64,000 nt of DNA from Candidatus Sericytochromatia bacterium. Its GTDB lineage: Bacteria; Cyanobacteriota; Sericytochromatia; S15B-MN24; UBA4093. The stretch is taken from assembly GCA_036676495.1 (NCBI GenBank), contig JAKFCT010000014.1, forward strand, positions 64,001 through 128,000, written 5' to 3'. Under the pieces are notes generated by a model. The model saw only the letters and a program-made list of their open reading frames with translations, had not been told where the DNA came from and did not search any database. Positions within the stretch are counted from its first letter, which is position 1. Each line of letters opens with the position of its first letter. Of this stretch, positions 14,377-30,588 are shown in pieces. Made by a program: the position numbers and the translations under genes.

Positions 14377-15318
14377 TTAGCTCATAACGGCGACGAGCCG
14401 TCCCGTGACACCGCCCTCGTGCAAGCGATCGAGGCCCGCCGGGATCTCCTCAAAGGTGGTCGGAACGATGAGAGGCGTCAGTTTCCCGGACGCATAGAGA
14501 TCGTAGACGGCCTTGACGTCATGAACGTCTCCTCCGACGGAGCCAACGAGCTGGACCGCCTTGACGATGAGCAGGCGGGTATTGATGGTCGCTTCGAGGC
14601 GCCCCATGCCGACTTGCACGACCCGGCCGCCCGGCTTGATGACCTCGATGGCGCCCGCCGTGGTGGTGCCGAAACCGGCGAAGTCGACGATCACGTCGAG
14701 GTCCAGCGGGAACTCCCGGACGTCGGTGAAGACCTGTTTTACGCCGATCTCCGCGCCAAGGGCGCGCGCCTTCTCGCTGACGTCAGCGGCATACACCTCG
14801 GCGCCGGCAATGACGGCGATCCGGGCGCCGACCTGTCCGAGTCCGCCCAGGCCGATGATGCCGACCTTCATGCCGGCCTTGGTCTGGCCGGCGACCATGA
14901 CCGCATGGTAGGAGGTCATCCCGGAATCGGTTCCCGCCGCCGCGTACTCGAAGGAGACGTTGTCGGGAATCCTGACAATATCCTCGACCCGGGCCGTGGT
15001 TTTGTTGGCGTAGCCGCCGTCACGGACGTAGCCGGGCAGGGTAGGGGTGCTGGGGCAAACACCCACCCGGTCTCCCACCTTGAAGTCGGTGACTCCCTCG
15101 CCTACCTCGCTGATGACGCCGGCGACCTCGTGACCGAGGATGACCGGCCGCGTCGTGATGATCTCCAACCAACCCGGGTCCTCCAGGGCGCCCACATCCG
15201 AGTGACACAGGCCTGCCGCCTTGACGTCGATGACAACCTCCCCGGGCGCTGCCTTGGGATCCGGCTTCTCGACCAGCGTCAGGGGTTCACCTGTGGTAGT
15301 GAATTGCCAACCCTTCAT
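14377..15318 (-). CDS. Zinc-binding alcohol dehydrogenase (MDR family, lacks the structural-Zn loop)
   Basis: GLCHSD, GHEVAG, GLGGLG Rossmann motif; AAGGAG RBS before ATG 15318. Confidence 0.9.
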   Translation of the reverse strand: MKGWQFTTTGEPLTLVEKPDPKAAPGEVVIDVKAAGLCHSDVGALEDPGWLEIITTRPVILGHEVAGVISEVGEGVTDFKVGDRVGVCPSTPTLPGYVRDGGYANKTTARVEDIVRIPDNVSFEYAAAGTDSGMTSYHAVMVAGQTKAGMKVGIIGLGGLGQVGARIAVIAGAEVYAADVSEKARALGAEIGVKQVFTDVREFPLDLDVIVDFAGFGTTTAGAIEVIKPGGRVVQVGMGRLEATINTRLLIVKAVQLVGSVGGDVHDVKAVYDLYASGKLTPLIVPTTFEEIPAGLDRLHEGGVTGRLVAVMS

Positions 15319-15609
15319 GAGAAGAACTCCTTTTTCGAGTGCGAGGGTCCCAAGAGGAGGGCGCGCGGCCCGAGGTGGTGGGAACCCCAAATTGTTACCC
15401 CCGTCGCGGGGACCCGGCCTGATCCAAGTCCGTTAGGCGAGTGCACGCGAAGCGGGTCTCGTCTGACCTCTTCAATGCTCGGACATCGGGAGTCGGGTGT
15501 CATCGGTAAAACCCCCTTGGGGGATATTACAGTCCCTTCACACCGTCCCGGTCATGTCCGATCCTGTCGCGGCGTTCGAAGGAGGAGGCGTAAGGCCGTC
15601 TCCCGGCAT

Positions 15610-15637
15610 GGGAGACATAACCTATATTATCGGACGC
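15610..15637 (-). other. dif-like XerC/XerD recombination site (degenerate XerD arm)
   Basis: Minus strand reads GCGTCCGATAA-TATAGG-TTATGTCTCCC: 11-6-11 layout with ATAA/TTAT inner repeats. Confidence 0.45.
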
Positions 15638-15995
15638 AATTTGGCCGTCTAGGCAGGCTCGCTAGAATCGCCTGAGATCCGGTCACATCAAGGGTTTGGG
15701 GCGTTTTGCGAATCACAACCCCTGAAAACCCCGTCTTGCCGCGTGCAAGCTCCGGGAGCTTCAGCCTTGCGCGAAGTAAGCGCCATGCGTTATGTCAGGT
15801 CCGAGGCGTACGAGAGCCAGGACTCAACCCAAGGGAGCGGAGTTTTGCCTGCCTCCCAGGTCATCCTGGAATGTGAGGCCTTGAAACCCGCTGGCGATGC
15901 GCGTTTGCGCGATCGAACCCAGGGGGCTGGACAACGGCTTTACCTTATCTTAAACTAAGAACGGAATGCAACGAAGCAATGGAGAGGATCCGACG

Positions 15996-16352
15996 ATGCT
16001 GAAGCCCCTCTTGGTCGGCATGGCCGTTCTGGCGATCGCCGGTTGCGGTACTTCCGGGATCCTGATGAAGGGCAAGCCTCCGGTCATCCGAACCATCCAG
16101 GCAGAGAGCAGCGACGTTCAGGTTGGCGCCGGCATTCATCTCAAGGCTCAGGTCGTCTCGGAGTCCGAAGACCTGACTTACGCGTGGCAGGCGAATAACG
16201 GCTTGCTCGCGAAGCCGACCGAGACCACGACCCTTTGGATTGCTCCGTCCGCCGTGCCATTCAGCCCTTACCCGGTCACGATCGCCCTGACCGTCAAGGA
16301 CGAGTACGGGCGCAACGTCAAGGCGACGTATCAAATCAGGGTCCATCAATAG
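15996..16352 (+). CDS. Small lipoprotein with Ig/PKD-like domain
   Basis: Lipobox IAGC, LTYAWQANNG, TLWIAP, LTVKDEYG; GGAGAGG RBS. Confidence 0.7.
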   Translation: MLKPLLVGMAVLAIAGCGTSGILMKGKPPVIRTIQAESSDVQVGAGIHLKAQVVSESEDLTYAWQANNGLLAKPTETTTLWIAPSAVPFSPYPVTIALTVKDEYGRNVKATYQIRVHQ

Positions 16353-16397
16353 GCCCTCTCGCCCCTCTAACGAGGCCTTGCATGCTACCATGGCCCT

Positions 16398-17354
16398 ATG
16401 AGAGTACTTGCCATTTTCATCGCGAGCACGGTCCTTCTGGCCGGCTGCTCCAAACCCTCCGACTCATCGGCTAACCAGGCGGAAATCCGCCTGGGAGCCC
16501 AATTATTCACCGAAAAGCGGCTTTCCCGGGACGGGTCTCTGTCGTGCGCCAGCTGTCACGACCCGGCACGAGGCTTCACCGATGGCCAGCCGGTCGCGGT
16601 GGGCCTCAACGGCGCCAAGGGCACCCGAAACACCCCGACCCTCTACGGCGTCGCGCACATGTCCAAGTTCTTCTGGGATGGCCGAGCCAATACCCTGGAG
16701 GAGCAGGCCCTGGGACCGCTCACGAGCCCCATCGAGATGGCGGCTGACCCCGATGCGGTCATCGACTGGCTCTCCAAGGACGAGGGCTACCGCCAGCGCT
16801 TCGAAGACGTCTTCGGTGGGCCTCCGACCTTGGAGCGCCTGACCAAGGCGCTGGCCACCTTCCAGCGGGCCGTGAAACTGGAACCGAGCCCCTTCGACCG
16901 CTGGCGGAACGGGGAGACCGAGGCCATCTCCGAGGCCGCGAAGCGCGGCTACAAGACCTTCTCGCAGCAAGGAAAGTGCTCGGTTTGCCACCGTGGGACC
17001 GAGCTCACCGACGGTGAGTTCCATAACCTCGGCATGGCTTCCAACCCCGAGAAGCCGGACCTCGGGCGCTTTGCGGTCAGCCAGTTCGAGGCTCACCGTG
17101 CCGCTTTCAAGACTCCGACGCTCTACAACGTGGACCTCACGGCCCCGTACATGCACGACGGGTCCCTCGGGACGCTGGAAGAAGTGGTGGAGTTCTACGA
17201 CCAGGGCGGCGGTCCGGGTCCGGGCCGCTCGACGCTCATGCGCAAGCTGAATCTGACGGAGCAAGAGAAGGCCGACTTGGTGGAGTTCCTCAAGACCCTC
17301 ACGGCACCGGACAATTCCAAACAATTGTTCGAGTCGGCTTCGAGCGCTAACTAG
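16398..17354 (+). CDS. Di-heme cytochrome c peroxidase / MauG family lipoprotein
   Basis: CASCH and CSVCH heme motifs, RNTPTL, FWDGRA, FKTPTL, APYMHDG; lipobox LAGC. Confidence 0.92.
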   Translation: MRVLAIFIASTVLLAGCSKPSDSSANQAEIRLGAQLFTEKRLSRDGSLSCASCHDPARGFTDGQPVAVGLNGAKGTRNTPTLYGVAHMSKFFWDGRANTLEEQALGPLTSPIEMAADPDAVIDWLSKDEGYRQRFEDVFGGPPTLERLTKALATFQRAVKLEPSPFDRWRNGETEAISEAAKRGYKTFSQQGKCSVCHRGTELTDGEFHNLGMASNPEKPDLGRFAVSQFEAHRAAFKTPTLYNVDLTAPYMHDGSLGTLEEVVEFYDQGGGPGPGRSTLMRKLNLTEQEKADLVEFLKTLTAPDNSKQLFESASSAN

Positions 17355-17381
17355 GTATCCTAGTTAGCGCTCGAAGCCGAC
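17333..17381. terminator. Perfect 23-bp inverted repeat overlapping the peroxidase stop codon
   Basis: gtcggcttcgagcgctaactagg-tat-cctagttagcgctcgaagccgac. Confidence 0.7.
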
Positions 17382-17414
17382 AACCTTCTCCCTGATTACG
17401 CGAATAGGCATCCA

Positions 17415-17461
17415 AGTAAAACAATAACCAGGTTATATAATAACCTGGTTATTGTTTTACT
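17415..17461. repeat. AT-rich perfect 22-bp inverted repeat with nested ATAACCWGGTTAT palindromes
   Basis: agtaaaacaataaccaggttat-ata-ataacctggttattgttttact. Confidence 0.85.
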
Positions 17462-17556
17462 CGGCTTTTTAACGAGGTGTATTTTTAACAAGCCTAATGA
17501 TTAACTAGTTTAATTATTAATCAGGTTAATGATTAAGGGCGTTATCCAATCGTCGA

Positions 17557-17937
17557 TCATGGGGTGACCGGAACCCGGTCCTCGACCTCGATCTTCAAAG
17601 GACCGAACTCGTCGGTGCGAACCTTCACGGTGAGCGCATGCGTTCCCGGAGCCAAGATCTGCCCCCGGACGGTGACCGCGACGACCTCCCCCTTCTTGAA
17701 AGTCACCGGGGCGGCTTCCGACACCGAAAGCGCTTCCCGCGTAACGCCTTCCTGGGCGAAGGTGATGGCTTCCAGGGCGTAGGACGTCCCGTCGACCGAA
17801 ACCTCGAGGATCTCCACGATGGTCGCCGGCATCACGGGATTGGTGAGGCCGAACTGAAACGCATGCTCCGCGTTGGATAGGCTGCCTGCCTGGTAAAACT
17901 GCGTCAGCATGAACGCGGGTATCTGCATTCCGAACAT
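17557..17937 (-). CDS. Conserved hypothetical small beta-sandwich protein
   Basis: 126 aa with typical codon usage; IPAFMLTQFYQAGSLSN...VSVDG pattern; divergent from the GNAT/lux-like operon. Confidence 0.65.
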   Translation of the reverse strand: MFGMQIPAFMLTQFYQAGSLSNAEHAFQFGLTNPVMPATIVEILEVSVDGTSYALEAITFAQEGVTREALSVSEAAPVTFKKGEVVAVTVRGQILAPGTHALTVKVRTDEFGPLKIEVEDRVPVTP

Positions 17938-18107
17938 CCGAGCCCCCTAAAATCGCTAGCTTCCGGTCCTTCTCTCTTCTTACACCCCTTCGGGCATCGA
18001 GACAAGCCTTTGGTAATCCCTGGGCCAATGGGGTAGAATGAACCAAGGAAGCACGTTCACCCCTGGCGCATCCCCAGGCATCTGGCTCAAAGACAGAGGA
18101 CTCACCC

Positions 18108-19283
18108 ATGAGTGGGCTTTTCCGCTCGATACAACTTCCCGACGGTAGATTCATCGACCTGCGGCGGGCCGGCCCCGACGACTCGGATGCCATCTTCGCC
18201 CTTTACGACCAGGTCTATCAGGGGTCTTACACCCTCGATATCGTCAACAAGACCACCGATCGCCTCGCGGCGCTCAGCGACCCCAACTTCTACTGGCTGG
18301 TGGTCGATGACGGCAGCGCCATCGTCGGCTCGGTCATCCTCGAGATGGACACCGTTCAGCGCAACGGCAAGGTCTTCGCCGCCGTCATGCGCGACGACTT
18401 CCGCCGCTATGACGCCATGAGCCGTCTCATCGGCATGGGCATCCAGAAGCTCATGTACGACGACCGCATCTGCGACGTCATCTACGCGACCACCCGGACC
18501 GCGAGCATCGGCCCGCGCCAGCTGCTCAAGAAGCTGGGCTTCATCAGCCTGGGGATCTTCCCGAACGTCCACCGCCTGGCCGAGTACGAAACCCACGGCC
18601 TCAGCGCCCTCTTCCACCCGGATGCCTGGGAGAAGCGGCGGCGCCTCCCCAAGCTCATCCCCGAGGTCGAGGGGTTCTACCGCATCATCCGGCAGACCTT
18701 CCATCTCGAGCCCGCCGAGATCATGCCTGCCAAGCACCAGCCCAAGCTCAAGATGATCCGCGGGGACGCCGTGGAACAAGAACTGCTGCGCGAGCGCGAG
18801 GCCGGCGCGCTCTTGATGGACTTCTTCCCCTTTCACAAGGCCAACTTCCTCTTCTCCAACGAGGACCGCAGCGTCATGGCCTTCGTCAACTACGAGGGCA
18901 AGGACGGCTACGGCACGCTCGTGGCGCTGAAGGCCCCCATCGAGGACCTGCGCGGCGTGCTCGAGGCCAGCTTCGACATGGGGCAGCGCCTCGGCATCGT
19001 CTACCTGGAGATCCTGGTCGACGCGTACAAGCCCCGCATGCAACGGGCGGCGCTCGCGGCCCAGTTCCTGCCATGCGCCTACTTCCCGAGCATGCAGCAA
19101 ACTGACGACGACCGGAAGGACTACCTGGTCTTCGCCCGTTCCACGCTGCCCCTCAACTTCTCCAACGTGCAGATGACGCCCCGAGACCGCGAGTTCCTCG
19201 ACCACTACCTCCAGAACACCGAGTTCCGGAACCTGGTCGTCAAGATGCACTTCACGGGGCCCCTCGACGAGGGTCGCCTGTGA
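18108..19283 (+). CDS. Tandem GNAT-fold N-acyltransferase-like protein
   Basis: N-terminal LRRAGPDD...IVGS...FRRY..QLLKKLGFISLGIFP GNAT pattern and a second degenerate fold (YLEILVDAY..FLPCAYFP). Confidence 0.65.
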   Translation: MSGLFRSIQLPDGRFIDLRRAGPDDSDAIFALYDQVYQGSYTLDIVNKTTDRLAALSDPNFYWLVVDDGSAIVGSVILEMDTVQRNGKVFAAVMRDDFRRYDAMSRLIGMGIQKLMYDDRICDVIYATTRTASIGPRQLLKKLGFISLGIFPNVHRLAEYETHGLSALFHPDAWEKRRRLPKLIPEVEGFYRIIRQTFHLEPAEIMPAKHQPKLKMIRGDAVEQELLREREAGALLMDFFPFHKANFLFSNEDRSVMAFVNYEGKDGYGTLVALKAPIEDLRGVLEASFDMGQRLGIVYLEILVDAYKPRMQRAALAAQFLPCAYFPSMQQTDDDRKDYLVFARSTLPLNFSNVQMTPRDREFLDHYLQNTEFRNLVVKMHFTGPLDEGRL

Positions 19284-20605
19284 TCGGGGCGTTCAACGCA
19301 GCCTCCATGGAGCGGCTCGCCTGGCCCGAGATCGAGACCCTCGCCCGGATCAAGCTGCGCACGCTGCTCGAGCTGGCGCGTTCGCGTTCCCCCTTCTACC
19401 GGGAGCGTCTCGCCGGCTTCCCGCTGCATGACCCCGAGGTCCTGCCCACCCTTCCGATCCTCAACAAGGAAGATCTCGTCGCCAACAGCCCGCCCGAGAG
19501 CGAAGCCATGCTCACCGGGCCGCTGGCGTCGGCCTACCTCTTCCGCAGCGGGGGCACGACCGGAGCCCCGAAGTTCTCGCCCTTTTCGGTCAGCGAGTTC
19601 AAGCACTGGGTCGATATCTTCAAGCGAACCTACGGCGCTGCCGGCCTGACGCCTCAGGACCGGGTCGCCAATCTCTTCGTCAGCGGCAGCCTTTACGCCT
19701 CGTTCATCTTCATCAACCGCATGGTCGAGGAGATGGGCTGCCTGAACCTTCCTTTCACCTCCTCGGCCGCTCCCGACACGGTCAGCGCCCAGATCGAGCG
19801 CTTCGACATCAACGTCATGATGGGCATTCCCTCCTGGCTGCTCGAGGTCGTCGCGGCCCTCACCCCGGCGGCCGCCGCGAAGGTCACCAAGATCTTCTAC
19901 GGAGGAGAGAACCTCTACCCCGAGGAGCGCGAATGGCTCCAATCGCACCTTCCAAATCTTAGAACTATCGCCTCGGGAGGCTACGCGTCCGTGGACGCCG
20001 GGATGATGGCGTTCCAATGCGGGGCCTCGCCCGGCGGCGTTCACCATGTCCACGCCGACCACGTGATCCTGGAGATCATCGATCCCGAGACCTGGATGGC
20101 GGTCGCTCCCGGTGAAGTCGGCCTGCTGCTGGTCACCACGCTCGACCGCCACTTGATGCCCCTGATCCGCTACCGCACGGGCGACGTCGGTCGCTGGGTG
20201 CCCGGTGACTGTCCCTGCGGCCGGCAGATGCCGCGCTTCGAACTGCTCGGGCGCGGCGACGACAGCCTGAGAATCGGCATCGCCACCGTCGGCATCGAGG
20301 AGATCCTGCCACCGATCGCCCAGACCCCCGGCCTCTCCACCCATGCGCAGATCGTCAAGGATCGCATCGAACGCAAGGACCAGCTCACCGTTCGGGTGGA
20401 GCGCCTTCCCGACGCGTCCGAGAGCCGCGAGGCGCTCGAAGCGAGCCTGGCCGAGCAGATCCGCCTCCAGAAGCCCGACCTCGCGAAGTTGGAGGCCACC
20501 GGTTACGTCATGCCCGTGCGCGTCGAGGTCCTGGACCCCAACGGCATCGGACGGGTCGCGGTCACCGGCAAGATCCGCCGCGTGGTCGACCGGTCTCGGG
20601 AATAG
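19280..20605 (+). CDS. Phenylacetate-CoA ligase / F390 synthetase-like adenylating enzyme
   Basis: RSGGTTGAP, YASVD, IRYRTGD, CPCGR, C-terminal GKIRRVVD; GTGA overlap with the upstream gene. Confidence 0.88.
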   Translation: MIGAFNAASMERLAWPEIETLARIKLRTLLELARSRSPFYRERLAGFPLHDPEVLPTLPILNKEDLVANSPPESEAMLTGPLASAYLFRSGGTTGAPKFSPFSVSEFKHWVDIFKRTYGAAGLTPQDRVANLFVSGSLYASFIFINRMVEEMGCLNLPFTSSAAPDTVSAQIERFDINVMMGIPSWLLEVVAALTPAAAAKVTKIFYGGENLYPEEREWLQSHLPNLRTIASGGYASVDAGMMAFQCGASPGGVHHVHADHVILEIIDPETWMAVAPGEVGLLLVTTLDRHLMPLIRYRTGDVGRWVPGDCPCGRQMPRFELLGRGDDSLRIGIATVGIEEILPPIAQTPGLSTHAQIVKDRIERKDQLTVRVERLPDASESREALEASLAEQIRLQKPDLAKLEATGYVMPVRVEVLDPNGIGRVAVTGKIRRVVDRSRE

Positions 20606-20609
20606 CCAC

Positions 20610-21728
20610 ATGACTGCCATCGAACGCCTGGTTGAAATCGACACGCTCTTCGACCTGACGCCCGAGCACGACACATGCTTCGTCGAGGCCATGCGCGAAG
20701 CCAGCGCCTGGCATGTCGCGCAATCGCAGGTCTTTCGCCACCTTTCCCGCAAGCAAGGCTTCACGCCCGAGGGCCTGCGCGACATTGCGGACGTGGCCCA
20801 GGTGCCGCATGTCTTCGTGAATGCCTTCAAGCAGTACGAGATCCTCTCCGTCCCGCGCGAGGAGGTCGTCCTGACCCTGACCTCCTCGGGAACCACCGGC
20901 CAGCGCAGCCAGATCATGTTCGACCAACCCTCCCTGGATCGCGGCTTGAGGATGGTCGACCGGGTCTTCGAGGCCATGGGCCTGAAACACCCCGAGCAGG
21001 TCGTGAACTACATCCTCTTCGCCTACGACCCCGAGGAGGCCAAGCAGGTCGGCACCTCGTACACCGACGACAACTTGACCAACCTGACCCGCAAGGGCAA
21101 GGTCTACCACGCGCTGCGCTGGAACGCCGAGACCAAGGCGTTCGAGTTTCGCCCCGCCGAGTGCTACGCCAAACTGCTCGAATACGCCTCAGACGGCTTG
21201 CCCGTTCGCCTGCTCGGTTTTCCCGCCTTCCTGCATCGCCTGGTCCAGTACCACCAGGAATCCGGAGCGCCCGCCCTCGACCTGGGCCCCGAGTCCTACG
21301 TCCTCACCGGGGGCGGCTGGAAGACCTCGGAACATGCGGCCATCGACAAGGATCGCTTCATCGCGGAGGTCTCCGCGACCCTCGGCATTCCCCCCGGCAA
21401 CCTGCGCGACGGGTACGGCCTGGTCGAGCACGGCATCGCGTACATCGAGTGCGAGCACCATCGCTTCCATGTTCCGGCTTTCGCGCGGGCCTTTGCCCGG
21501 GACGTCGGGACCCTCGAGATCCTTCCCGACGGCGAGGTGGGCTTTCTCCAGCTCGTGACCCCGTACATGCGCTCGATGCCGACCATCTCCCTGCTCACCA
21601 GTGACCTGGCGCAGGTGGGAAGGGATTGTCCTTGTGGCCGTAAGTCCGGGACCATCGTCCTCCAGGGGCGTGCGGGCACCCGCAAGAACAAAGGATGCGC
21701 CATCACGGCGGCTCAGCTCTTGAAGTAG
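20610..21728 (+). CDS. luxE: LuxE-family acyl-protein synthetase
   Basis: ATG 20610; LTSSGTTG, LTGGGWK, RDGYGLVEH, SLLTSD, C-terminal acyl-carrier Cys in KNKGCA. Confidence 0.85.
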   Translation: MTAIERLVEIDTLFDLTPEHDTCFVEAMREASAWHVAQSQVFRHLSRKQGFTPEGLRDIADVAQVPHVFVNAFKQYEILSVPREEVVLTLTSSGTTGQRSQIMFDQPSLDRGLRMVDRVFEAMGLKHPEQVVNYILFAYDPEEAKQVGTSYTDDNLTNLTRKGKVYHALRWNAETKAFEFRPAECYAKLLEYASDGLPVRLLGFPAFLHRLVQYHQESGAPALDLGPESYVLTGGGWKTSEHAAIDKDRFIAEVSATLGIPPGNLRDGYGLVEHGIAYIECEHHRFHVPAFARAFARDVGTLEILPDGEVGFLQLVTPYMRSMPTISLLTSDLAQVGRDCPCGRKSGTIVLQGRAGTRKNKGCAITAAQLLK

Positions 21729-21738
21729 GAGAAGACGG

Positions 21739-24390
21739 ATGCACTACCTCTTCGGCCGCCCTTTCAAAGGCCTCATCGACGATGCCAAAGCCCAGGACGT
21801 GCTCCGAGAGGCGCAGTCGCGCCGGGCCGCCTTCCGTCAGGTCCCCCTGGAGACGATCCTGGGGGTGCTGGAGCGGGTCGGAAAGCGCTTCAGCGATCCG
21901 TCCGATCCGGTCACCCGCAAGGTGCTCGCGGAGGCCCCGGCTCAGATTGGTTTCAGCCGGCCCATGGTCGAGGAAGAGCTCAAGGGAGTGGCGCTCGCCC
22001 TGAGTCGCCCCTACCTCGAGCCGAAGATCGCCAAGGAGCTGGGATCCCTCGACGCGCTGGACGACTGGACCGGAGGGTACGGGAAGCCGTTCACGCGGGC
22101 CCTTCCGCGCGGAGTGGTCCTTCACGTCTCGAGCGGAAACGTCCTCAGCGCCGGGGCGTTGAGCATGGTCGAGGGCCTGCTCACCAAGAACGTCAACCTC
22201 CTGAAGGCCGCGAGCCGCGCCACCCTCTTTCCCCTGGCCTTCGCCGAGACCGTTCGCGAGGTCGACGAGGACGGCCATGTCGCGGAGTCCTTCGCCGTCC
22301 TCTCCTGGCCGGGCTCAGGTAGCCAGGTTCACCGCGTCTTCCAGGAGGGCTGCGATGCCATCGTGGTCTGGGGCGGCGAGGACGTCGTGAAAACTTACCG
22401 GGAAGGCCTCGGCCTCAAGTGCAAGCTCATCGAATACGGGCCGAAGGTCAGTTTCGGGGCGATCGCCCACGACGTCCTCGACGACCCCGACATCGCCCGT
22501 GAAGCGGCCATGGCGCTGGCCCTCTGGGATCAGAGCGCATGCTCCAGCCCGCAGGTCCTCTACGTCGAAGACGCGACTCCCGACCATGCCCCCACGCTCG
22601 CCTTCGTCGACCGCCTCGCGGACGCGTTGCGCGAGGTCGAAGCCTCCCTTCCCCAGGGCCCCCTGGGCTTCCAGGAGCGCGCCGAGCTGACCAAGGAACG
22701 TCAGGTGGCCGAGGTCACCGAGGCCATGGGCCAGGGTTTGCTCCGCAAGCCCGGCACGGCTCCCGACTGGACCCTCGTCGCGGAATGGGATCCCTCCTTC
22801 AAGCTCTCACCGCTGTTTCGCACGCTCTACATCAAGCCGGTCGCCAGCCTCTCCGAGCTTCCCGCGCTGGTCGCGCCTTACACGGATTACCTGCAAACCG
22901 CCGGGATCGCGGCAAAGCCCGAACGGGTCCGGGACCTGGCCGAGCAGCTCTTCGACACGGGCATGCTGAGGGTCACCACGCTCGCGGGCATGTCGGGCGG
23001 CGAGCCCGGCGAGCCGCATGACGGAGGCTACGCCCTGCATGCCCTGGTCAAGTGGGTGACCATGGGCTTCAAGGGGGAGGGCGATCGCTACGACGCCGCC
23101 GAGTGGCACAGCTCCGAGGCGGCCCAGCGCCAGACCTTCGCCAAGCTCAAGCGCCTGGTGGAGGATGTCGCTCCGCAAGCTCCCCTCTACCGGGAACGCT
23201 ATGCGGGGCTGAAAATCCGGACCTTGGACGACTGGTCTCGGGTGCCCGTCCTCAGCAAGGAGGATCTCCGCGCGGGTACTCCGCCTCGGAGCGAGGCCCT
23301 CTTCACGGGAGCGCCGCATGGGGCGCATTTCCTGAGGAGCGGGGGCTCGACGGGTGAGCCTGCCCTCTCGGCGTTCGCCTATCCCGACTACGAAGCCGAC
23401 ATGCTGCGGGCCGCACGGGGGCTCTTCGCCCTTGGCCTGAGGCCCGGCGATCGCGTCGCCAACCTCTTCATGGCCGGACACCTCTACGGATCCTTCCTCT
23501 CCATCAACCGCGGGCTGGAGCTGGTCGGCTGCAACAATTTCCCCTTCACCAGCGCCACTCCCGCCAAGGAGCTGCCTGCGCTCTTGCGGGCTTACGGCAT
23601 CGAGGTCCTCGCGGGCCTGCCGTCCTGGCTGATGGAGGTCTTCGAGGCCATCCGCCAGGACCCCGAAGGAGTTCGGATCCGCAAGGTCTTCTACACCGGC
23701 GAGCACTTCTACCCGCAGGATCGCGAGCGTCTGGCCCACGAGTTCGGGATCACGCAGTTCGGAAGCCTGGGCTACGGCACGGTCGACGCCGGCCCCATCG
23801 CTTACCAGTGCCAGGAGAGCCGCGGGGGAGTGCATCACCTTCACGACGACCACCAGTTCATCGAGATCGTGGACTCGGAGACGCTGATGCCGGTTCCGGC
23901 CGGAGAGCCGGGCGAATTGCTCATCACCAACCTCAACCGCCGCCTGATGCCGGTCGTGCGCTACCGGATTGGCGATCGCGCCCGCTGGATCCCCGAGCCC
24001 TGCCCCTGCGGCCGGCCGGCTCCACGCTTCGAGCTGCTGGGACGCTGCGACGACATGATGGTGGTGGGCGGCATCAACCTCACCTACGCCGAGTTGCACG
24101 AGGCGGCCATGAGCCTCGACGGCGTGCAAGGCCCCTTGCAACTCGTGATCTCGCGGCATGAGCACCGCGATCGCCTCACCCTGCGCATCGAAGCCAGCGA
24201 GCAAGGTCTGGGCGACATCCTCGCCGCGGGCGTCGTCGCCCGGGTCGACCTGCTGCGTCAGGTCATCGACAAGGGCCAGATGAGTCCGCTTGTCGTCGAC
24301 GTCCTGCCCCCCGGTGGGATCGAACGCATCCCCCGGACCGGCAAAATCCGCAAGGTGATCGACCGGAGAAACGATGAGCCCGTCAATTAG
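21739..24390 (+). CDS. luxC: LuxC-family acyl-CoA/acyl-protein reductase fused to a C-terminal PaaK-like ligase domain
   Basis: PRGVVLHVSSGNV, VVWGGE, EYGPKVSF, catalytic WDQSACSSPQ, HDG; then RSGGSTGEP, RYRIGD, CPCGR, GKIRKVID. Confidence 0.85.
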   Translation: MHYLFGRPFKGLIDDAKAQDVLREAQSRRAAFRQVPLETILGVLERVGKRFSDPSDPVTRKVLAEAPAQIGFSRPMVEEELKGVALALSRPYLEPKIAKELGSLDALDDWTGGYGKPFTRALPRGVVLHVSSGNVLSAGALSMVEGLLTKNVNLLKAASRATLFPLAFAETVREVDEDGHVAESFAVLSWPGSGSQVHRVFQEGCDAIVVWGGEDVVKTYREGLGLKCKLIEYGPKVSFGAIAHDVLDDPDIAREAAMALALWDQSACSSPQVLYVEDATPDHAPTLAFVDRLADALREVEASLPQGPLGFQERAELTKERQVAEVTEAMGQGLLRKPGTAPDWTLVAEWDPSFKLSPLFRTLYIKPVASLSELPALVAPYTDYLQTAGIAAKPERVRDLAEQLFDTGMLRVTTLAGMSGGEPGEPHDGGYALHALVKWVTMGFKGEGDRYDAAEWHSSEAAQRQTFAKLKRLVEDVAPQAPLYRERYAGLKIRTLDDWSRVPVLSKEDLRAGTPPRSEALFTGAPHGAHFLRSGGSTGEPALSAFAYPDYEADMLRAARGLFALGLRPGDRVANLFMAGHLYGSFLSINRGLELVGCNNFPFTSATPAKELPALLRAYGIEVLAGLPSWLMEVFEAIRQDPEGVRIRKVFYTGEHFYPQDRERLAHEFGITQFGSLGYGTVDAGPIAYQCQESRGGVHHLHDDHQFIEIVDSETLMPVPAGEPGELLITNLNRRLMPVVRYRIGDRARWIPEPCPCGRPAPRFELLGRCDDMMVVGGINLTYAELHEAAMSLDGVQGPLQLVISRHEHRDRLTLRIEASEQGLGDILAAGVVARVDLLRQVIDKGQMSPLVVDVLPPGGIERIPRTGKIRKVIDRRNDEPVN

Positions 24391-25699
24391 GCCGGAAGGC
24401 CGTTCCGAGCGGCTCTCCGGCGTCGAGGACGGGATGGGTAGCGCGCTTCACGCCGAAACCCAGGTCCGCCGTCACCCTCCCCTGCTTCGCAACCGCGACT
24501 TCCTCCTGCTCTGGTCCGGGCAGGGCGTCTCGCAGATTGGCGCCAAGGTCCTGCAAATCGGCCTGGTCTGGTGGGCTTTGGAGCGAGGTGGCAGCCTCGC
24601 GGCGGTCAGCGGAGCGCTGGTGGCGACCTCGCTGCCCTTCGTAGTCGTCGGCCTCTTCGCGGGGGTCCTCGCGGACAAGTGGAATCGCCGCGGCCTGATG
24701 GTCGCTTGCGAGGCTGGAAACGCCGTGATCGTCTTGGCACTGGCGGCCTTGGCATGGAGCGATCTGCTCACGCTGCCCATCCTGATGGTCGGAACCGCGC
24801 TGGTCTCGACTCTGGCTGCCGTCTTCAGCCCCGCGGCGATGGCGTCGATTCCCGATCTGGTAGACGAGCCCGATCTCATTCGCGCCAATTCGCTTCAAGA
24901 GATGACCGCCCAGGGGGCCTTGGTCTTTGGTCCGGCGCTGGGGGGAGCGATGCTCGCGATGATGGGGGCGCCCGCCGCCTTTCTCACGACCGCGTCGACC
25001 TACGCGATCAGCGCCGTCTGCATGCTGGCGCTGCGCCTGAAGCGCCGCGAGGTGCCCGCGGATCCCGGTTCGGAGGGCGCCCATCCCGTGAAGGAACTGC
25101 TGGGCGGGTTCGCCGTCCTCAAGGAGAATCCGGCGATCGCGACCCTGCTCGGCCTCTTTGCCGTGGCGAATTTCCTCCTGGTGCCGGTCACCGTCTTCCT
25201 TCCCTACTATGCCAAGGACGTCTTCGCCGTCGGAGCGGGGGGACTCGGCATGCTGGAGGGAAGCATCGGGGTGGGAATGATCGTCGGAGCACTGGCGCTG
25301 ATGCGCGCAGGCTCGGTGTCCAAGCGGCGGCTGGCCATCCAGTGCGGCCTGGTCATTCCGGGCATGGCCCTCGCCTACATGGGGATCTGGCCGAGCTACG
25401 GAGGTTTCCTGGGAGCGCTCCTGGTTCTGGGCATCGCGCTATCGGTGATGAACGTCGTCTCGATGACGTTCTTCCAGGAGAACGTGCCGCCCGAGCGGTT
25501 GGGGCGTTTCATGGGCCTGCTCATGACGCTCATCATGGCCTTGATGCCGCTTTCTTACGGGGCGGCCGGCCTGGCGACGCTGGGCGTGCCGGCAGGCAGC
25601 ATCATGACCGGGGGGGGAATCGCGCTGGTGATCCTGGGGCTGCTTTTGCCGCTCTTTCGATCGCTGAGGCCGCTGGAGGGGGGAGGAATCGATGGATAA
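24374..25699 (+). CDS. MFS transporter (H+ antiporter-3 / macrolide-efflux-like)
   Basis: RNRDFLLLWSGQGVS, AGVLADKWNRR motif A, about 12 TM helices; alternative start at 24434. Confidence 0.9.
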   Translation: MSPSIRPEGRSERLSGVEDGMGSALHAETQVRRHPPLLRNRDFLLLWSGQGVSQIGAKVLQIGLVWWALERGGSLAAVSGALVATSLPFVVVGLFAGVLADKWNRRGLMVACEAGNAVIVLALAALAWSDLLTLPILMVGTALVSTLAAVFSPAAMASIPDLVDEPDLIRANSLQEMTAQGALVFGPALGGAMLAMMGAPAAFLTTASTYAISAVCMLALRLKRREVPADPGSEGAHPVKELLGGFAVLKENPAIATLLGLFAVANFLLVPVTVFLPYYAKDVFAVGAGGLGMLEGSIGVGMIVGALALMRAGSVSKRRLAIQCGLVIPGMALAYMGIWPSYGGFLGALLVLGIALSVMNVVSMTFFQENVPPERLGRFMGLLMTLIMALMPLSYGAAGLATLGVPAGSIMTGGGIALVILGLLLPLFRSLRPLEGGGIDG

Positions 25700-26966
25700 G
25701 ACCAAGGCTCGGCTTCGCTTCCTGAAGAGTCGTTTCCGCCGGCCGGCGTCGAACTCGGAGCGGGAACTCGCCTACTATGCCCTGCTCCAGCGGATCACGG
25801 CCTCCTTGCACCGGTCTCTGGACTTCGATGCGATTCTCGAGACGGTGGTCTCCGGGCTGCAGCATGAGCTGGATCTGACGCGGTGTTCGGTCTGGTTTCC
25901 CGAAGGCGCGACGGCGCTGCACATCCGCAGGGCCGTCGGGAAAGTGAGCGAGGGTCCGATGGCGAGCGCCGTCTGGCCGGTGGCCTGGGACGCGCTGGCC
26001 GATCGGCGGGTGGTGGCGGTCGACGACGTGCGGGCCTACGGGAAGGCGAGTTCCATCCCCCCGCATGTCGGAGCCCTGGGGCAGGTGGTCGCGGAAGCCG
26101 TCATTGCCGCCCCCATCCTGCTCGAAGCGGAGCTCAAGGGCTTGTTGCTGCTCGAGGCTCCGCATCCGCGGCACTGGGACGCGTCCACGATTCGCCTGAT
26201 CGAGGCGATCGCCGAGCAGCTCTCGGTGGCGCTGGTCCATGCGCGCATGATGATGTCCTTGAAGGAACTCGACGCGATGAAGACCGAGTTCCTTTCCATC
26301 GCCTCCCATGAGCTGCGCACGCCCATCACCGTCATCCGGGGCTACGCGGCCGTCCTCTTGCGACACGGGGGGACGCTCTCGGAAGCCGAGCGCAGCGAGT
26401 TCGTCCGCATGATCGATGATCGGGCCGTGCATCTGGGCCGCCTGGTCGAGGACATTCTCGACGTCTCGCGCCTGGAGGGCGGGATGCTCTCCTTGCACTC
26501 GGAACCCTTCGAATGGGAAGTCGTGCTCGGCAAGCTCATCGAGGGTCTCGAGCTCAAGTACCACCGCCCGGTGAACATCCACCTGACCACCATGACCACG
26601 CGCCGGGTATTGATTGCCGATCCTTCCCGGGTCGAGCAAGTCCTTTTGAACCTTCTCGATAATGCTATCAAGTACTCGCCCCCGAACGATGCGATCGATC
26701 TGGACGTCCGGGATACCGCGCGCGGGGTGCGGTTCACGGTGGTCAATCCGGGCGAGAAGCTGACCGTGGAGGAAGTGCGACGGCTGACCGGAAAGTTCGT
26801 TCGGCTGGATCGGCACCGGACGGCAGGCGGCACGGGGCTTGGACTTTACATTTGCCGGAGGCTCGTAGAGCTGATGGGCGGGACCTTGGAACTAGAAGCG
26901 ATGCCGGAGGGTGGCCTCCGGGTAGGGTTTGACCTGGCATGTCCGGACGATGTGCGAACGACCTGA
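25692..26966 (+). CDS. GAF-domain sensor histidine kinase
   Basis: SLDFDAILETVV GAF start, SHELRTP H-box, NLLDNAIKYS, GTGLGL; overlaps the MFS stop. Confidence 0.92.
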   Translation: MDKTKARLRFLKSRFRRPASNSERELAYYALLQRITASLHRSLDFDAILETVVSGLQHELDLTRCSVWFPEGATALHIRRAVGKVSEGPMASAVWPVAWDALADRRVVAVDDVRAYGKASSIPPHVGALGQVVAEAVIAAPILLEAELKGLLLLEAPHPRHWDASTIRLIEAIAEQLSVALVHARMMMSLKELDAMKTEFLSIASHELRTPITVIRGYAAVLLRHGGTLSEAERSEFVRMIDDRAVHLGRLVEDILDVSRLEGGMLSLHSEPFEWEVVLGKLIEGLELKYHRPVNIHLTTMTTRRVLIADPSRVEQVLLNLLDNAIKYSPPNDAIDLDVRDTARGVRFTVVNPGEKLTVEEVRRLTGKFVRLDRHRTAGGTGLGLYICRRLVELMGGTLELEAMPEGGLRVGFDLACPDDVRTT

Positions 26967-27083
26967 CGCTCATCCTCCTACTTGTCTTGCCACTAACTTT
27001 ATGAGAAGGTTAAGACAGTCAAGTATGGGATGACCGAACGCCTTTACTTGAGGGACAGGCACGTACTAGACAATGAGGTTTGT

Positions 27084-27905
27084 ATGAAACGCCTAAACCT
27101 GGGTCTTACCGGTCTTTTGATGGGGAGCTTGCTCGTCGGTTGCGGGATGCCGTCCGACCTGATGGTTTCCCCTCGCGCGTCTCAGGGCAGCTTCAGCGCC
27201 CGCTCCGGCGCGCCTGCCGACTACTATCAGTACGCTCAAGGCAAGACCGGCATGGCCCTGCTTTCCGCGCTTCAGAACACCGTCTCCAAGCACAAGGACC
27301 TCGGCTACGGCGGGGCCCGCAACGTGATGTTCGGAGACCTCGACGACGACCTCGACAACGACACCGTCGACTGCGTCTACACCGGCATGGTCGTCAAGGG
27401 CGTCAAGGACTCCGGGACCGCCATGAGCGGTGGCCTCAACACCGAGCACTCCTGGCCCCAGAGCCTGGGCGCCACCGGCGCCGCCAAGGCCGACCTCCAC
27501 CACCTGTTCCCGACCGACGTCGAGACCAACGGAGCTCGCGGCTCCCATCCCTTCGGCGAGGTGAAGAACCCCACGCATACGTTCCCGGTCTTCGACGTCG
27601 GCGCCCGCCAGAGCATGCTCGGCGTGAACGCCGCGGGCAAGACCGTCTTCGAGCCGCGCGACCAACACAAGGGCGACCTCGCCCGGGCCCTCTTCTACTT
27701 CTACACGGTCTATGGCTTCCGCGGCGGTGCCAACCTCTCCAACTTCCGCGTGGAGGAAGAGACCCTCAAGAAGTGGCACGTGCTCGACCCGGTGGACGCC
27801 TCCGAGCGGAAGCGTAACGACGGCATCTACTCCGTTCAGGGCAACCGGAACCCGTACATCGACCACCCGGAGTACGTCCAGGCTATCGGAAACTTCCTCA
27901 ACTAA
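27084..27905 (+). CDS. Endonuclease I family extracellular nuclease (lipoprotein)
   Basis: Lipobox LVGC, NTEHSWPQS, DLHHLFP, KGDLARA, QGNRNPYIDHPE. Confidence 0.9.
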   Translation: MKRLNLGLTGLLMGSLLVGCGMPSDLMVSPRASQGSFSARSGAPADYYQYAQGKTGMALLSALQNTVSKHKDLGYGGARNVMFGDLDDDLDNDTVDCVYTGMVVKGVKDSGTAMSGGLNTEHSWPQSLGATGAAKADLHHLFPTDVETNGARGSHPFGEVKNPTHTFPVFDVGARQSMLGVNAAGKTVFEPRDQHKGDLARALFYFYTVYGFRGGANLSNFRVEEETLKKWHVLDPVDASERKRNDGIYSVQGNRNPYIDHPEYVQAIGNFLN

Positions 27906-28980
27906 CCGGATTGGAGGGCTCGGCTTCGGCCGGGCCCTCTTCGCTTGGGCGGGCCCAGTCCTCCCAGAGCACCATCCAGACCGAGAGGATGGCGGGCCCC
28001 AAGAAGAGGCCGAGCAGCCCGAAGGCGGCGAGCCCCCCGAGGAAGGCGAAGAAGACCTGCAAGTAGGGAAGGCGAGTGGTCCCACTGATGAAGAGCGGCC
28101 GCACCAGGTTGTCGATGGTGCTGATCGCAAGCACTCCCCAGACAAGGAGACCGATGCCCGGCCAGAGGTTACCCTGAAGCAAGAGCCAGCCGGCTGCCGG
28201 CACCCAGATCACGGTCGCGCCGAAGGGCAGCAACGCGAAGATGCCGGTCAGGATGCCCAAGAGCACCGGCGAGGGCACGCCGAACAGGGTGAACCCCAGA
28301 CCGGCCACCGCCCCCTGCGCGAGGGCGGCGAGGATCACTCCGAAGAAGACCGCGCGGGTGGTCTCGCGAATGGGGTACAGCAGGCGGTCGATGTCATCCC
28401 CCAGGAAGCGCCGGAGGACGGCGCGCGTCTTGAGGGCATAGGCCTCCCCGTTGCGGTAGAAGAAGAAGAGCGTGAAGAAGGCGAGCACGAGCTGGAAGAG
28501 GTTCGTGCCGGCTCCGGCGATCGCCTTGAGCCAAGGGAGCGCCTGGGCACTCACCGCTTCGCCGAGCCTTCCGGAGTCATGCAGCAAGGGGCTCAGCATG
28601 TCTTCCCAGATGACGGCCAGATTCGGGAATCGCTCCAGCAGCCCAGGGAACGGGTTTGAGGCCCACCACGCCCGGAGCGACTCCACCATGGTCGCCCCTT
28701 CGACGGTGGCGGCCCGGAGCAGCAGCGTCAGCGGCACCGCCACGACGGTGATCACCAAGAGCAGCATGACGAAGGCGGCGAAGGTCTGACGGCCCTTCAG
28801 GGCGTGAAGGAGCTTGCGGTAGCTGGGCCATGTCACGAAGGCAAAGACGAGCCCCCAGGCGAGGGCTTCCCAGAACGGGCGGATGAGCACTCCCGCCAGG
28901 ATGACGAGCAGCGTGTAGAACGTGAGCTGGGCGAAGATCTGAAGCGGTCGGTCCAATCGTCGCGGCAACATCGTAAGCAT
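27898..28980 (-). CDS. AI-2E family transporter (PerM/YdiK-like)
   Basis: Multi-TM protein with FFFYRNG, IDNLVRP, GLLGLFLGP. Confidence 0.9.
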   Translation of the reverse strand: MLTMLPRRLDRPLQIFAQLTFYTLLVILAGVLIRPFWEALAWGLVFAFVTWPSYRKLLHALKGRQTFAAFVMLLLVITVVAVPLTLLLRAATVEGATMVESLRAWWASNPFPGLLERFPNLAVIWEDMLSPLLHDSGRLGEAVSAQALPWLKAIAGAGTNLFQLVLAFFTLFFFYRNGEAYALKTRAVLRRFLGDDIDRLLYPIRETTRAVFFGVILAALAQGAVAGLGFTLFGVPSPVLLGILTGIFALLPFGATVIWVPAAGWLLLQGNLWPGIGLLVWGVLAISTIDNLVRPLFISGTTRLPYLQVFFAFLGGLAAFGLLGLFLGPAILSVWMVLWEDWARPSEEGPAEAEPSNPVS

Positions 28981-29052
28981 CCCTTTCCCAACGACATGGG
29001 GTGGCCCCGATCGAGCCACCCCATGGTACCGCATCTCTTGCTTGGAGAGCGC

Positions 29053-30372
29053 CTAGCGCACTCCCTCGGGAACGTTGAAGGAGAAGACCTTGGCGTCCTT
29101 GATGGCGTCGCGCAGCTCGCCGCGGAAGTTCGGGTGCGCGATCGAGATCAAGGCATCCGCCCGCTGGCGTAGCGACAGGCCATGCAGGTTGACCGCCCCG
29201 TACTCGGTGACGACCCAGTGGACGTGACCGCGGGTGGTGACCACGCCGGCCCCCGGCTTGAGGGTGGCGGCAATGCGCGAGACGGTTCCCTTGCAGGCGG
29301 TCGCGGGCAACGCGATGATGGGCTTGCCACCCCGCGAGAGCGCCGCCCCGCGGATGAAGTCCATCTGGCCGCCGATGCCGGAGTAGACCCGCCAGCCGAT
29401 GGAATCGGCGCAGACCTGACCGGTGATGTCGACTTCGAGGGCGCTGTTGATGGCGACCACCCGATCGTTCTTGCGGATGACGGCCGTGTCGTTGGTGTAG
29501 TCGCACGGGTGGAATTCGACGGTGGGGTTGTTGTCCACGAAGTCGAAGAGGCGCTGGGTTCCGTTGATGAAGCTGGTGACCAGGCGGCCCCGCTTGAAGT
29601 TCTTGAGGCGGTTCGTGATGACGCCTCCCTCGACCAGGGGAACGACACCGTCCGAGAACATCTCGGTATGGATGCCGAGGTCCACCTTGTTGCCCAGCTG
29701 GGCCAGGACGGCGTCGGGGATGGCGCCGATGCCCATCTGGAGGGTGGAGCCGTCCTCGATGAGATCCGCGATGATACCGCCGATGCTGCGCTCCACGTCC
29801 GAGATGACGGCGGGCTCGTGGGTCATCAGGGGGCGATCGGTGAGGATGAAGTGATCGATCTTGCTGATGTGGATGAAGCTGTTGCCGAGGGTTCGGGGCA
29901 TCTGCTTGTTGATCTCGGCGATCACGATGGCGGCCGTGTCGACCGCAGCGCGCGCGGTGTCCACCGAGGTGCCCAGGCTGCAGTAGCCATGCTCGTCGGG
30001 GTAGGAGACCTGCACGACGGCGACGTCGAGGGGAATCTGACGGGACGTGAAGAGCCAGGGGATATCGGAAAGGAAGATCGGGACGTAGTCGGCCCGGCCT
30101 TCGTTGACGGCTTGACGGAGATTGGAACCGGTGAACAGGGAGTTGGCGTGGAACTGGCCCGCCTTTTCGGGAGCCGCGTAAGGAGCGGGCCCCGCCATGT
30201 GCAGGTGATAGACTTCCACTCCGTGAAGGTCGTTGCGGGCGGCCATGGCTTCCTCGAGCGGAATCGGGGATGCACAGGCGCCATGCAGAAAGACCTTCAT
30301 GCCGCTCTTGATGGGCAGGACGGCTTCTTCAGGGGTCACGGCGCGCTGTTGCCAGGTCGTGGTGAGTCGCAT
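29053..30372 (-). CDS. Acetyl-CoA hydrolase/transferase (4-hydroxybutyrate CoA-transferase type)
   Basis: LQMGIGAIP, GIHTEM, INSALEVD, SGIGGQMDF, VVTEYG. Confidence 0.92.
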   Translation of the reverse strand: MRLTTTWQQRAVTPEEAVLPIKSGMKVFLHGACASPIPLEEAMAARNDLHGVEVYHLHMAGPAPYAAPEKAGQFHANSLFTGSNLRQAVNEGRADYVPIFLSDIPWLFTSRQIPLDVAVVQVSYPDEHGYCSLGTSVDTARAAVDTAAIVIAEINKQMPRTLGNSFIHISKIDHFILTDRPLMTHEPAVISDVERSIGGIIADLIEDGSTLQMGIGAIPDAVLAQLGNKVDLGIHTEMFSDGVVPLVEGGVITNRLKNFKRGRLVTSFINGTQRLFDFVDNNPTVEFHPCDYTNDTAVIRKNDRVVAINSALEVDITGQVCADSIGWRVYSGIGGQMDFIRGAALSRGGKPIIALPATACKGTVSRIAATLKPGAGVVTTRGHVHWVVTEYGAVNLHGLSLRQRADALISIAHPNFRGELRDAIKDAKVFSFNVPEGVR

Positions 30373-30576: not shown

Positions 30577-30588
30577 AGATTGTGTTGG

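Follow-up and report, generated by a model that had tools for sequence, protein, structure and literature searches.

What do LuxC- and LuxE-type reductase genes accomplish outside bioluminescence? The question is posed by a stretch of 64,000 nt (the window; contig JAKFCT010000014.1, positions 64,001 to 128,000) from an uncultured soil Sericytochromatia bacterium, a relative of cyanobacteria. The window is part of a metagenome-assembled genome (MAG) of 4.1 Mb in 106 contigs, which is 91.9% complete with 6.7% contamination. Positions 18108-26966 are filled by six open reading frames (ORFs), all on the + strand. They code for a GNAT-type acyltransferase, a PaaK-like ligase, a LuxE-type acyl-protein synthetase, a LuxC::PaaK fusion, an MFS transporter and a GAF-domain histidine kinase. 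A first-pass annotation of the DNA had described six tightly packed or overlapping genes in this order, and ORFs, family matches and gene junctions agree with that description. We propose that the operon is leupeptin-type, i.e., independent of nonribosomal peptide synthetases (NRPS), and that it makes and exports a small N-acyl (tri)peptide aldehyde. The probability of this reading we put at about 0.6. Judged by its sequences, the locus would belong to the leup type as a distant variant that has a tandem-GNAT cap, a rearranged gene order, an appended kinase and a host from a new phylum, and would not be a new kind of system.

The enzymes and their catalytic residues

The genes and their catalytic residues are read directly from the DNA. 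The S-G/S-G-T/S-T-G loop is kept in all three adenylating domains. The stand-alone PaaK carries SGGTTG at residues 90-95 and TGK at residues 429-431; it matches NCBIfam PaaK models at 3e-41 and 2e-37, in both cases far under the cut-offs, and is presumed to be an amide-bond ligase. The PaaK domain of the fusion resembles PaaK structures (4r1l and others, 1.7e-45) and the solved PaaK-like ligases 6siw and 6wuq (AjiA1; 1e-24), which we take to form ester or amide bonds. The LuxE protein matches the LuxE chain of the LuxC-LuxE structure, 7xc6_E, at 2.3e-25, and the LuxC domain of the fusion matches the LuxC chain, 7xc6_A, at 2e-31. None of these proteins qualifies as an equivalog. The NCBIfam LuxE model NF052244 gives 105 bits against a cut-off of 550, the LuxC model NF052251 gives 120 against 750, and all PaaK and LuxC/LuxE scores are far under their cut-offs, e.g., 141 bits against 700.

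An excerpt on the lux enzymes of Photobacterium phosphoreum describes the C-terminal LuxE motif TRxxKGCxLS with Cys364, names K238 and R355 as catalytic, and reports that the acyl group is handed from LuxE to LuxC, which also takes acyl-CoA as donor (PMC9157457). In the LuxE of the window the C-terminal TRKNKGCA with Cys363 aligns with 358-TRxxKGCxLS-367 and Cys364, and Lys238 and Arg354 align with K238 and R355. In the fusion DQSAC with Cys268 aligns with DQQAC of P. phosphoreum LuxC, and Cys268 is invariant in 29/29 aligned fusions. The first-pass annotation had claimed that LuxE retains the Cys of its KGCA motif, that LuxC retains its catalytic Cys and that three domains are adenylate-forming. 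The alignments confirm all of this.

The first protein of the operon had been called an acyltransferase-like GNAT. The GNAT fold stands; more exactly, according to models of both halves, the 391-aa protein is a tandem GNAT, and its architecture differs from that of the 294-aa leup-type enzyme introduced below. We predict this since both halves match GNAT folds and both hold invariant residues. In a family alignment (A2) 30 invariant columns are spread across both halves. The AlphaFold2 model of the whole protein, built on an alignment of 20 sequences, has a pLDDT of 78.9, that of the C-terminal half alone 83.4. The modelled N-terminal half is similar to the GNAT 2ge3_A (VIA Z 13.4, rmsd 2.1 over 153 residues), and the C-terminal half modelled alone matches GNATs in Foldseek (1vhs, E 2e-7; TM 0.47-0.60). 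Foldseek matches of the whole model include the tandem-GNAT proteins 2wpw and 9en3, with poor global superposition.

The MFS protein matches TIGR00900 at 4e-66, under the cut-off, and EntS at 3e-29. It is the presumed exporter of the product. The histidine kinase is adjacent and 75-79% identical only in two loci of the same genus (L006 and L007), MAGs named 'Candidatus Sericytochromatia bacterium' which are the nearest named relatives and whose fusion proteins are 82-84% identical to that of the window. From this distribution the kinase is considered a genus-specific add-on outside the conserved cassette. The 8-nt overlap with the MFS gene suggests that the kinase is joined to the operon end by translational coupling. 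The first-pass view of a co-transcribed sensor kinase is thus upheld as far as adjacency and overlap are concerned, but not as part of a conserved cassette. A Response_reg domain was found neither in the 22 neighbouring ORFs scanned (1032-17937 and 32759-43405) nor in the flanking ORFs of 16398-17354 and 27030-30372.

The gene junctions are narrow. GNAT and PaaK genes overlap by 4 nt (GTGA), gaps of 4 nt and 10 nt separate PaaK from LuxE and LuxE from the fusion, and the fusion overlaps the MFS gene by 17 nt. Because the junctions overlap or are separated by only 4-10 nt the six genes likely constitute a single operon. A look-up of sequencing runs for the stretch listed four soil-metagenome DNA runs, of which one may be its source, and none of RNA. 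The longest LuxE ORF begins at 20343, within the PaaK gene; the ATG at 20610, 4 nt past the PaaK stop, is most likely the true start and fits the homologues. A promoter scan of 17300-27400 gave a single sigma-70-like site against a shuffle mean of 1.2, i.e., no better than chance, and a scan for promoters and terminators inside the operon returned nothing above chance.

Kinship with leup-type operons

A known operon, leup, is made up of the same five families that precede the kinase gene. The leup (leupeptin) pathway, with an MFS transporter and leupABCD, was reportedly defined by Li et al. in 2020 (Angew. Chem. 59:17872). Defined leup loci are NC_016612.1 KOX_RS06925-06945 of K. oxytoca and CP011636.1 315,353-321,183 of K. 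michiganensis. Excerpts of a preprint describe the leup operon of Klebsiella oxytoca as coding for an acyl-protein synthetase of the LuxE/PaaK family, a LuxC-type reductase, a PaaK-family ligase, a GNAT and an MFS protein. The operon gives rise to leupeptin and to a Leu-Arg pyrazinone with autoinducer-like activity, and is present in Klebsiella, Photorhabdus and Xenorhabdus (PMC11480411, in excerpt). The leupABCD genes of strain CAV1374 measure 5,831 bp according to an excerpt which also reports coordinates and primers (PMC8283571), and 'leupeptin' regions appear in excerpts on Photorhabdus genomes (PMC12542766, PMC13707504). A literature search yielded no text that assigns individual steps to LeupA-D.

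A PLSDB search with the fusion returned 295 matching records, nine of which cover at least 80% of the fusion. One of the nine, the Salmonella enterica plasmid CP054717.1, carries a leup-type operon of 5,759 bp (5560-11318, L092). It codes for an acyl-protein synthase LuxE (375 aa), an 802-aa fusion, a PaaK (433 aa) and a GNAT (294 aa), in this order; the fusion is annotated 'AMP-binding protein' and consists of LuxC (1e-104) and AMP-binding domains. The LuxE of this plasmid is 92% identical to a Klebsiella aerogenes protein and shares 62-67% identity with proteins annotated 'LuxE/PaaK family acyltransferase' in many species of Photorhabdus and Xenorhabdus. Because its LuxE is close to the Photorhabdus and Xenorhabdus proteins and the operon is of similar size, we provisionally took the plasmid operon as leup-type reference, i.e., as a proxy. 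The two sizes, 5,831 and 5,759 bp, suggest that the Klebsiella leup reductase is also fused to a ligase: they fit a reductase-ligase of 2.4 kb and not a LuxC of 1.4 kb. CP054717.1 is a conjugative IncF plasmid; there the operon is flanked by toxin-antitoxin and recombinase genes. The same fusion is encoded on another Salmonella plasmid, CP053580.1.

Kinship of the window to the reference operon is directly observed. LuxE is 36% identical over the full length (E 2e-77), the LuxC domain 29%, the fused PaaK domain 37% and the stand-alone PaaK 33%. An MFS gene adjoins the enzymes as in the leup type and overlaps the 3' end of the fusion. A GNAT-family acyltransferase belongs to the operon, as in the leup type; this is evident from the N-terminal GNAT fold and from an hhalign comparison of A2 with the 294-aa plasmid GNAT, which gave a probability of 95.3% and E 2e-8 for residues 16-149 only. 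In subfamily and architecture the two enzymes do not agree (391 aa versus 294 aa), and BLASTP of one against the other gave no match at 1e-3. A search with a tandem-GNAT profile retrieved no Klebsiella or Photorhabdus protein in the best 120 of 354 matches.

A closer counterpart of the acyltransferase is encoded on plasmid p1 of Streptomyces sp. W1SF4 (NZ_CP034351.1, 1968-10769, L093), where PaaK, MFS, GNAT (381 aa), LuxE and fusion (846 aa, annotated 'acyl-CoA reductase') genes follow each other. Its GNAT is 26% identical to that of the window over the full length. To our knowledge this cluster is uncharacterised. A caspase-family protein is encoded after the cassette on the opposite strand. 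Several Streptomyces and Kitasatospora strains, as well as Streptantibioticus cattleyicolor, have similar fusions on large linear plasmids.

Phylogenetic trees were computed as quick IQ-TREE searches with SH-aLRT support only and with hand-chosen rows. The LuxE tree has 43 rows, i.e., proteins from 27 of the 75 loci described below, 10 of the best 120 LuxE matches, two plasmid proteins, the window and three LuxE from loci which have LuxC and LuxE only. All fusion-linked LuxE fall into one clade (97), apart from the LuxE of the LuxCE-only loci. Within it a clade (100) of Streptomyces and proteobacterial leup-type proteins is the sister group (85) of the eight Sericytochromatia rows. The PaaK tree (32 rows) contains an 18-row group (99) of Sericytochromatia, Salmonella, Streptomyces and one Xenobia locus, with stand-alone as well as fused copies. 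Inside this group the fused copies cluster (89) and the stand-alone copies form no resolved branch; therefore the tree neither shows nor rejects a common origin of the stand-alone ligase.

The first-pass annotation had proposed an uncharacterised pathway which activates acids without a carrier protein, condenses them, releases the product reductively and exports an aldehyde, alcohol or amide. Its logic stands, as it is that of the closest known system. The epithet 'uncharacterised' has to be given up: five families in common with the leup operon, identities of 29-37% and the grouping in the trees mean that, at the level of pathway type, the cluster matches one already characterised.

Conservation, distribution and surroundings

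Conservation of the cassette is a direct observation as well. A search with the fusion in a database of 5.8 billion clusters scored 7,998 candidates. It uncovered 93 relatives at E <= 0.001, all from metagenomes or MAGs, of Sericytochromatia, MAGs labelled Cyanobacteria, Armatimonadetes, Elusimicrobia and Deltaproteobacteria. In a 1,277-aa protein from Armatimonadetes (P0044) LuxE, LuxC and AMP-binding domains are joined in a single chain, i.e., a triple fusion of the core activities.

For the host lineage the MAG of the window and 40 relatives were surveyed. Among these 41 genomes 24 have a strong match to the fusion (E <= 1e-120), two a weak PaaK-like match only and 15 none. Counted by family at E <= 0.001 and without the MAG of the window, matches are present in 9/9 genomes of the window's own family (f1), in 8/8 (f3) and 5/8 (f4) of two other families of the order, in 1/1 each of f2 and f5, in 1/3 of f7, and in 0/10 of one other family of the class (f6).

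In a collection of species-representative genomes 500 of 511 pattern-matched stretches encode a relative of the fusion, and the best 80 were condensed to 75 loci. The proteins of the window were mapped on these by tblastn. A match to the LuxC domain on the + strand was obtained in 74, of which 59 have at least 3.6 kb of upstream sequence. LuxE is located directly upstream of the fusion in 55/59 loci, LuxE plus a tandem GNAT of the 391-aa type in 46/59; the co-occurrence in other genomes which the first-pass annotation had proposed to check is therefore real. A stand-alone PaaK is present in 16/59, an MFS gene in 20/59 and any kinase-like match in 5/59. In view of these counts the conserved core, as defined by sequence matches, is tandem GNAT, LuxE and LuxC::PaaK, to which Sericytochromatia add PaaK and the MFS gene. 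The core occurs in Bdellovibrionota, Riflebacteria, Elusimicrobiota, Armatimonadota, Xenobia and others. A single literature search listed no paper in which leupeptin-type clusters are connected with Sericytochromatia, Bdellovibrionota, Elusimicrobia or Riflebacteria; the only listed paper that contains the word leupeptin, once, deals with magnetosome organisation.

Among 401 Gammaproteobacteria genomes the LuxE of the window found matches in six, with a fusion context only in Marichromatium (G041). No chromosomal leup-type locus was found in this sample. Three others of the six (L088-L090) have LuxE and LuxC without PaaK. The locus of Marichromatium gracile (L091, G041:C2, 5189-16394) represents a third form of the cassette which is also seen in L071, L072, L074, L076 and L078. 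Its order is a 531-aa fusion of an RsbW-like HATPase_c_2 domain with a GNAT, an MFS gene, a 465-aa ORF without Pfam match, PaaK, LuxE and LuxC::PaaK; a dCache-HAMP-SpoIIE phosphatase is encoded just downstream on the opposite strand. The tandem-GNAT profile has no match in the M. gracile genome. This arrangement suggests control of the capping enzyme by partner switching.

In the window the operon is surrounded by unrelated genes (Table 1). Upstream are dnaE, holA, uppS, a cation-efflux protein, a zinc alcohol dehydrogenase, a MauG-like di-haem peroxidase and a small divergent gene; downstream are endonuclease I, an AI-2E-family transporter and an acetyl-CoA hydrolase/transferase. Domains of carrier proteins, NRPS, polyketide synthases, glycosyltransferases and lux proteins are absent from the 22 neighbouring ORFs scanned. 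A near-perfect palindrome of 47 nt (17415-17461), with a 20-bp AT-rich stem followed by a T-run, separates the MauG-like gene from the convergent small gene and is likely a bidirectional terminator. The region 30001-36000 has a G+C content of 0.56-0.59, compared to about 0.64-0.68 elsewhere in the window. Its genes include a DUF3887-alpha/beta hydrolase, a MarR regulator and a PAS-PAS histidine kinase, and the region may have been acquired as an island.

Table 1. Features of the operon and its immediate upstream region (positions in the window)
Feature	Positions	Strand	Matches and remarks
Tandem-GNAT acyltransferase (predicted), 391 aa	18108-19283	+	no Pfam match; weak NCBIfam GNAT match 1e-4
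Stand-alone PaaK-like adenylate-forming ligase, 441 aa	19280-20605	+	AMP-binding 8.6e-10; AMP-binding_C_2; paak_haloarch 3e-41
LuxE-type acyl-protein synthetase, 372 aa	20610-21728	+	PF04443 1.6e-35
LuxC::PaaK fusion, 883 aa	21739-24390	+	PF05893 LuxC 1.1e-78 (residues 35-439); AMP-binding 6e-12 (577-730)
MFS transporter, DHA3/EntS-like	24374-25699	+	MFS_1 7e-36; MFS_3 2e-23
Soluble GAF-HisKA-HATPase histidine kinase	25692-26966	+	GAF + HisKA + HATPase_c
Divergent intergenic region, 170 nt	17938-18107	+	one sigma-70-like match at 18010-18039
126-aa protein, HMG-CoA_red_N / C-glycoside deglycosidase beta-like domain	17557-17937	-	conserved beside the operon in L006, L007
MauG/MbnH-like di-haem peroxidase	16398-17354	+	CCP_MauG 1.8e-56; under NCBIfam equivalog cut-offs

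Proposed pathway, alternatives and known systems

From the families and residues described we infer the assignment of enzymes to steps, the number and identity of the residues joined and the product. The tandem GNAT would transfer an acyl group from acyl-CoA to the first amino acid as a cap. The stand-alone and the fused PaaK would each form an acyl-AMP and join it to the amino group of the following amino acid, yielding two amide bonds and an N-acyl tripeptide. LuxE would adenylate the C-terminal carboxylate, load the acyl group onto its own Cys363 and hand it to Cys268 of the LuxC domain, where NAD(P)H would reduce the thioester to the aldehyde. The MFS protein would export the aldehyde, and in this genus the GAF kinase may regulate the operon or respond to the product. 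By count, a single cap, two ligase domains and one LuxE/LuxC pair agree with an N-acyl tripeptide aldehyde of the leupeptin kind. With the three-gene core seen elsewhere the product would then be shorter.

Several observations weigh against a leupeptin-type operon. The link to leup is made, on present sequence comparisons, by way of names in annotations, the size of the operon and a proxy operon, and identities to this proxy are only 29-37%. The Klebsiella primers leupA_f and leupB_r have 0 matches in the CP054717.1 locus at up to 3 mismatches, and the peptide encoded by leupA_f is in none of 333 collected proteins. The order GNAT-PaaK-LuxE-fusion-MFS in the window is not the order LuxE-fusion-PaaK-GNAT of the reference. 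The C-terminal half of the acyltransferase has no detectable similarity to the leup-type GNAT of the Salmonella plasmid (hhalign probability 0.4%). The sister grouping in the LuxE tree has a support of 85 only, and both trees are quick searches. Finally, most genomes of the order retain the cassette, which is more in line with a core function than with a sporadic secondary metabolite.

Which alternatives have to be considered? The same enzymes could make another product, i.e., a single N-acylated amino aldehyde or an amino aldehyde which cyclises spontaneously to a pyrazinone or dihydropyrazine signal. The aldehyde would then be an intermediate and not a protease inhibitor, and the GAF kinase would be part of a signalling loop. 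This possibility is doubtful. In its favour, the autoinducer-like Leu-Arg pyrazinone is a product of the Klebsiella leup operon, too (PMC11480411, in excerpt), the kinase appears to be translationally coupled here, and the minimal cassette of tandem GNAT, LuxE and fusion (46/59 loci, with a stand-alone PaaK in only 16/59) has just one PaaK domain, so that the family likely includes products smaller than tripeptides. On the other hand, the window has the full four-enzyme set of the leup type, the kinase is genus-specific, and a response regulator is absent from the flanking ORFs scanned. Alternatively, the operon could encode a reductase of fatty or aromatic carboxylic acids for envelope lipids or another metabolite, in which PaaK would produce CoA thioesters and the GNAT would transfer acyl groups. 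LuxC and LuxE are components of fatty-acid reductase and LuxC accepts acyl-CoA (PMC9157457, in excerpt); the PaaK matches are phenylacetate-CoA ligases, and strong fusion matches in 24/41 genomes place the cassette in most genomes of the order. We nevertheless regard this as clearly unlikely. The MAG has no luxD, the neighbouring ORFs scanned contain no acyl carrier protein, PaaK, LuxC and LuxE score far under the equivalog cut-offs, the LuxE of LuxCE-only loci constitute a separate, distant clade, and synteny and trees point to the leup type.

The same clade bears on a module for glycan or flagellin modification with LuxE and LuxC of the kind found in glycosylation islands. LuxC- and LuxE-like genes are mentioned for flagellin glycosylation islands in excerpts of two papers (PMC7874193, PMC4875605), and the three PaaK-less gammaproteobacterial loci would suit such a role. 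Their LuxE, however, is a distant outgroup in the tree, and the 22 neighbouring ORFs scanned include neither a glycosyltransferase gene nor sugar-nucleotide or flagellar genes, which makes such a module very improbable. That the operon feeds an aldehyde to bioluminescence, with luxAB elsewhere in the genome, has next to no probability. Although LuxC and LuxE domains have intact catalytic residues, the sole luciferase-like gene of the MAG (one PF00296 match, on another contig) is an MsnO8-family LLM oxidoreductase, with 387.5 bits against an MsnO8 cut-off of 167 and 29 bits against 600 for the LuxA model. No luxA, luxB or luxD (PF02273) was found across the MAG, at its completeness of 91.9%, and LuxE is present once. 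The absence of luxA/B and luxD, which the first-pass annotation had noted for the window, thus extends to the MAG.

A leupeptin-type operon accordingly remains our preferred reading, at the probability given above. Going further, one might speculate that the cassette is a lineage-wide physiological system in which an endogenous peptide aldehyde or pyrazinone controls the proteases of the producer or of its neighbours or serves as a signal that diffuses. The coupled soluble GAF kinase of this genus would then act as receptor, and an autoinducer-type loop would exist in a non-photosynthetic relative of cyanobacteria. We consider this extension improbable. Leupeptin-type pathways produce small peptide aldehydes without NRPS by means of free-standing LuxE/PaaK ligases and a LuxC reductase. 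The present locus and its relatives suggest that this toolkit reaches far past gammaproteobacteria, the group of its characterised members, to Sericytochromatia, Bdellovibrionota, Riflebacteria, Elusimicrobiota, Armatimonadota and Streptomyces plasmids. Outside gammaproteobacteria the capping enzyme is mostly a tandem GNAT, and a varying number of ligase domains should set the length of the peptide. New protease inhibitors or pyrazinone signals may be found in this family, as may compact ligases that form amides. The family also hints at a physiology conserved across phyla of which few or no members have been cultured.

How does the locus compare with known systems? With leup it has the five families in common, in both cases without carrier protein and without NRPS. 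LuxE is placed directly upstream of the LuxC::PaaK fusion in the window and in the leup-type reference, and LuxE, fusion and PaaK are homologous over the full length. The differences are that in the window GNAT and stand-alone PaaK genes are upstream and the MFS gene is downstream of this pair, that a GAF histidine kinase is appended, that the predicted tandem GNAT of 391 aa and the leup-type enzyme of 294 aa are related in their N-terminal halves only, and that the host is a soil Sericytochromatia and not a gammaproteobacterium. With the cluster of the Streptomyces plasmid NZ_CP034351.1 the window shares the same five genes including the tandem GNAT (LuxE 41% identical over the full length, fusion 33-40%). 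The Streptomyces order, PaaK-MFS-GNAT-LuxE-fusion, is different, a kinase is absent, and the Streptomyces LuxE branches with the proteobacterial leup type (SH-aLRT 100) and outside the clade of the window's LuxE.

Peptide aldehydes are also produced by NRPS. Excerpts on the leupeptin cluster of Streptomyces roseus and on livipeptin describe peptide aldehydes which are freed by terminal reductase domains (bioRxiv 10.1101/2020.10.26.356543). The product class proposed here would be the same, small N-acyl protease-inhibiting compounds, and so would the end chemistry from thioester to aldehyde. The NRPS systems use carrier domains and condensation or tRNA-dependent steps, whereas the operon has free-standing ligases and a LuxC-type reductase and no carrier. 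From LuxCDE of luminous bacteria, as represented by LuxC-LuxE of P. phosphoreum (7xc6), the window is set apart by the lack of LuxD and LuxAB, the fusion of LuxC to a PaaK domain and equivalog scores under the cut-offs. In common are the adenylation residues of LuxE, its C-terminal Cys loop and the catalytic Cys of LuxC, and the hand-over from the Cys of LuxE to that of LuxC in luminous bacteria is the model for the reduction step proposed for the window.

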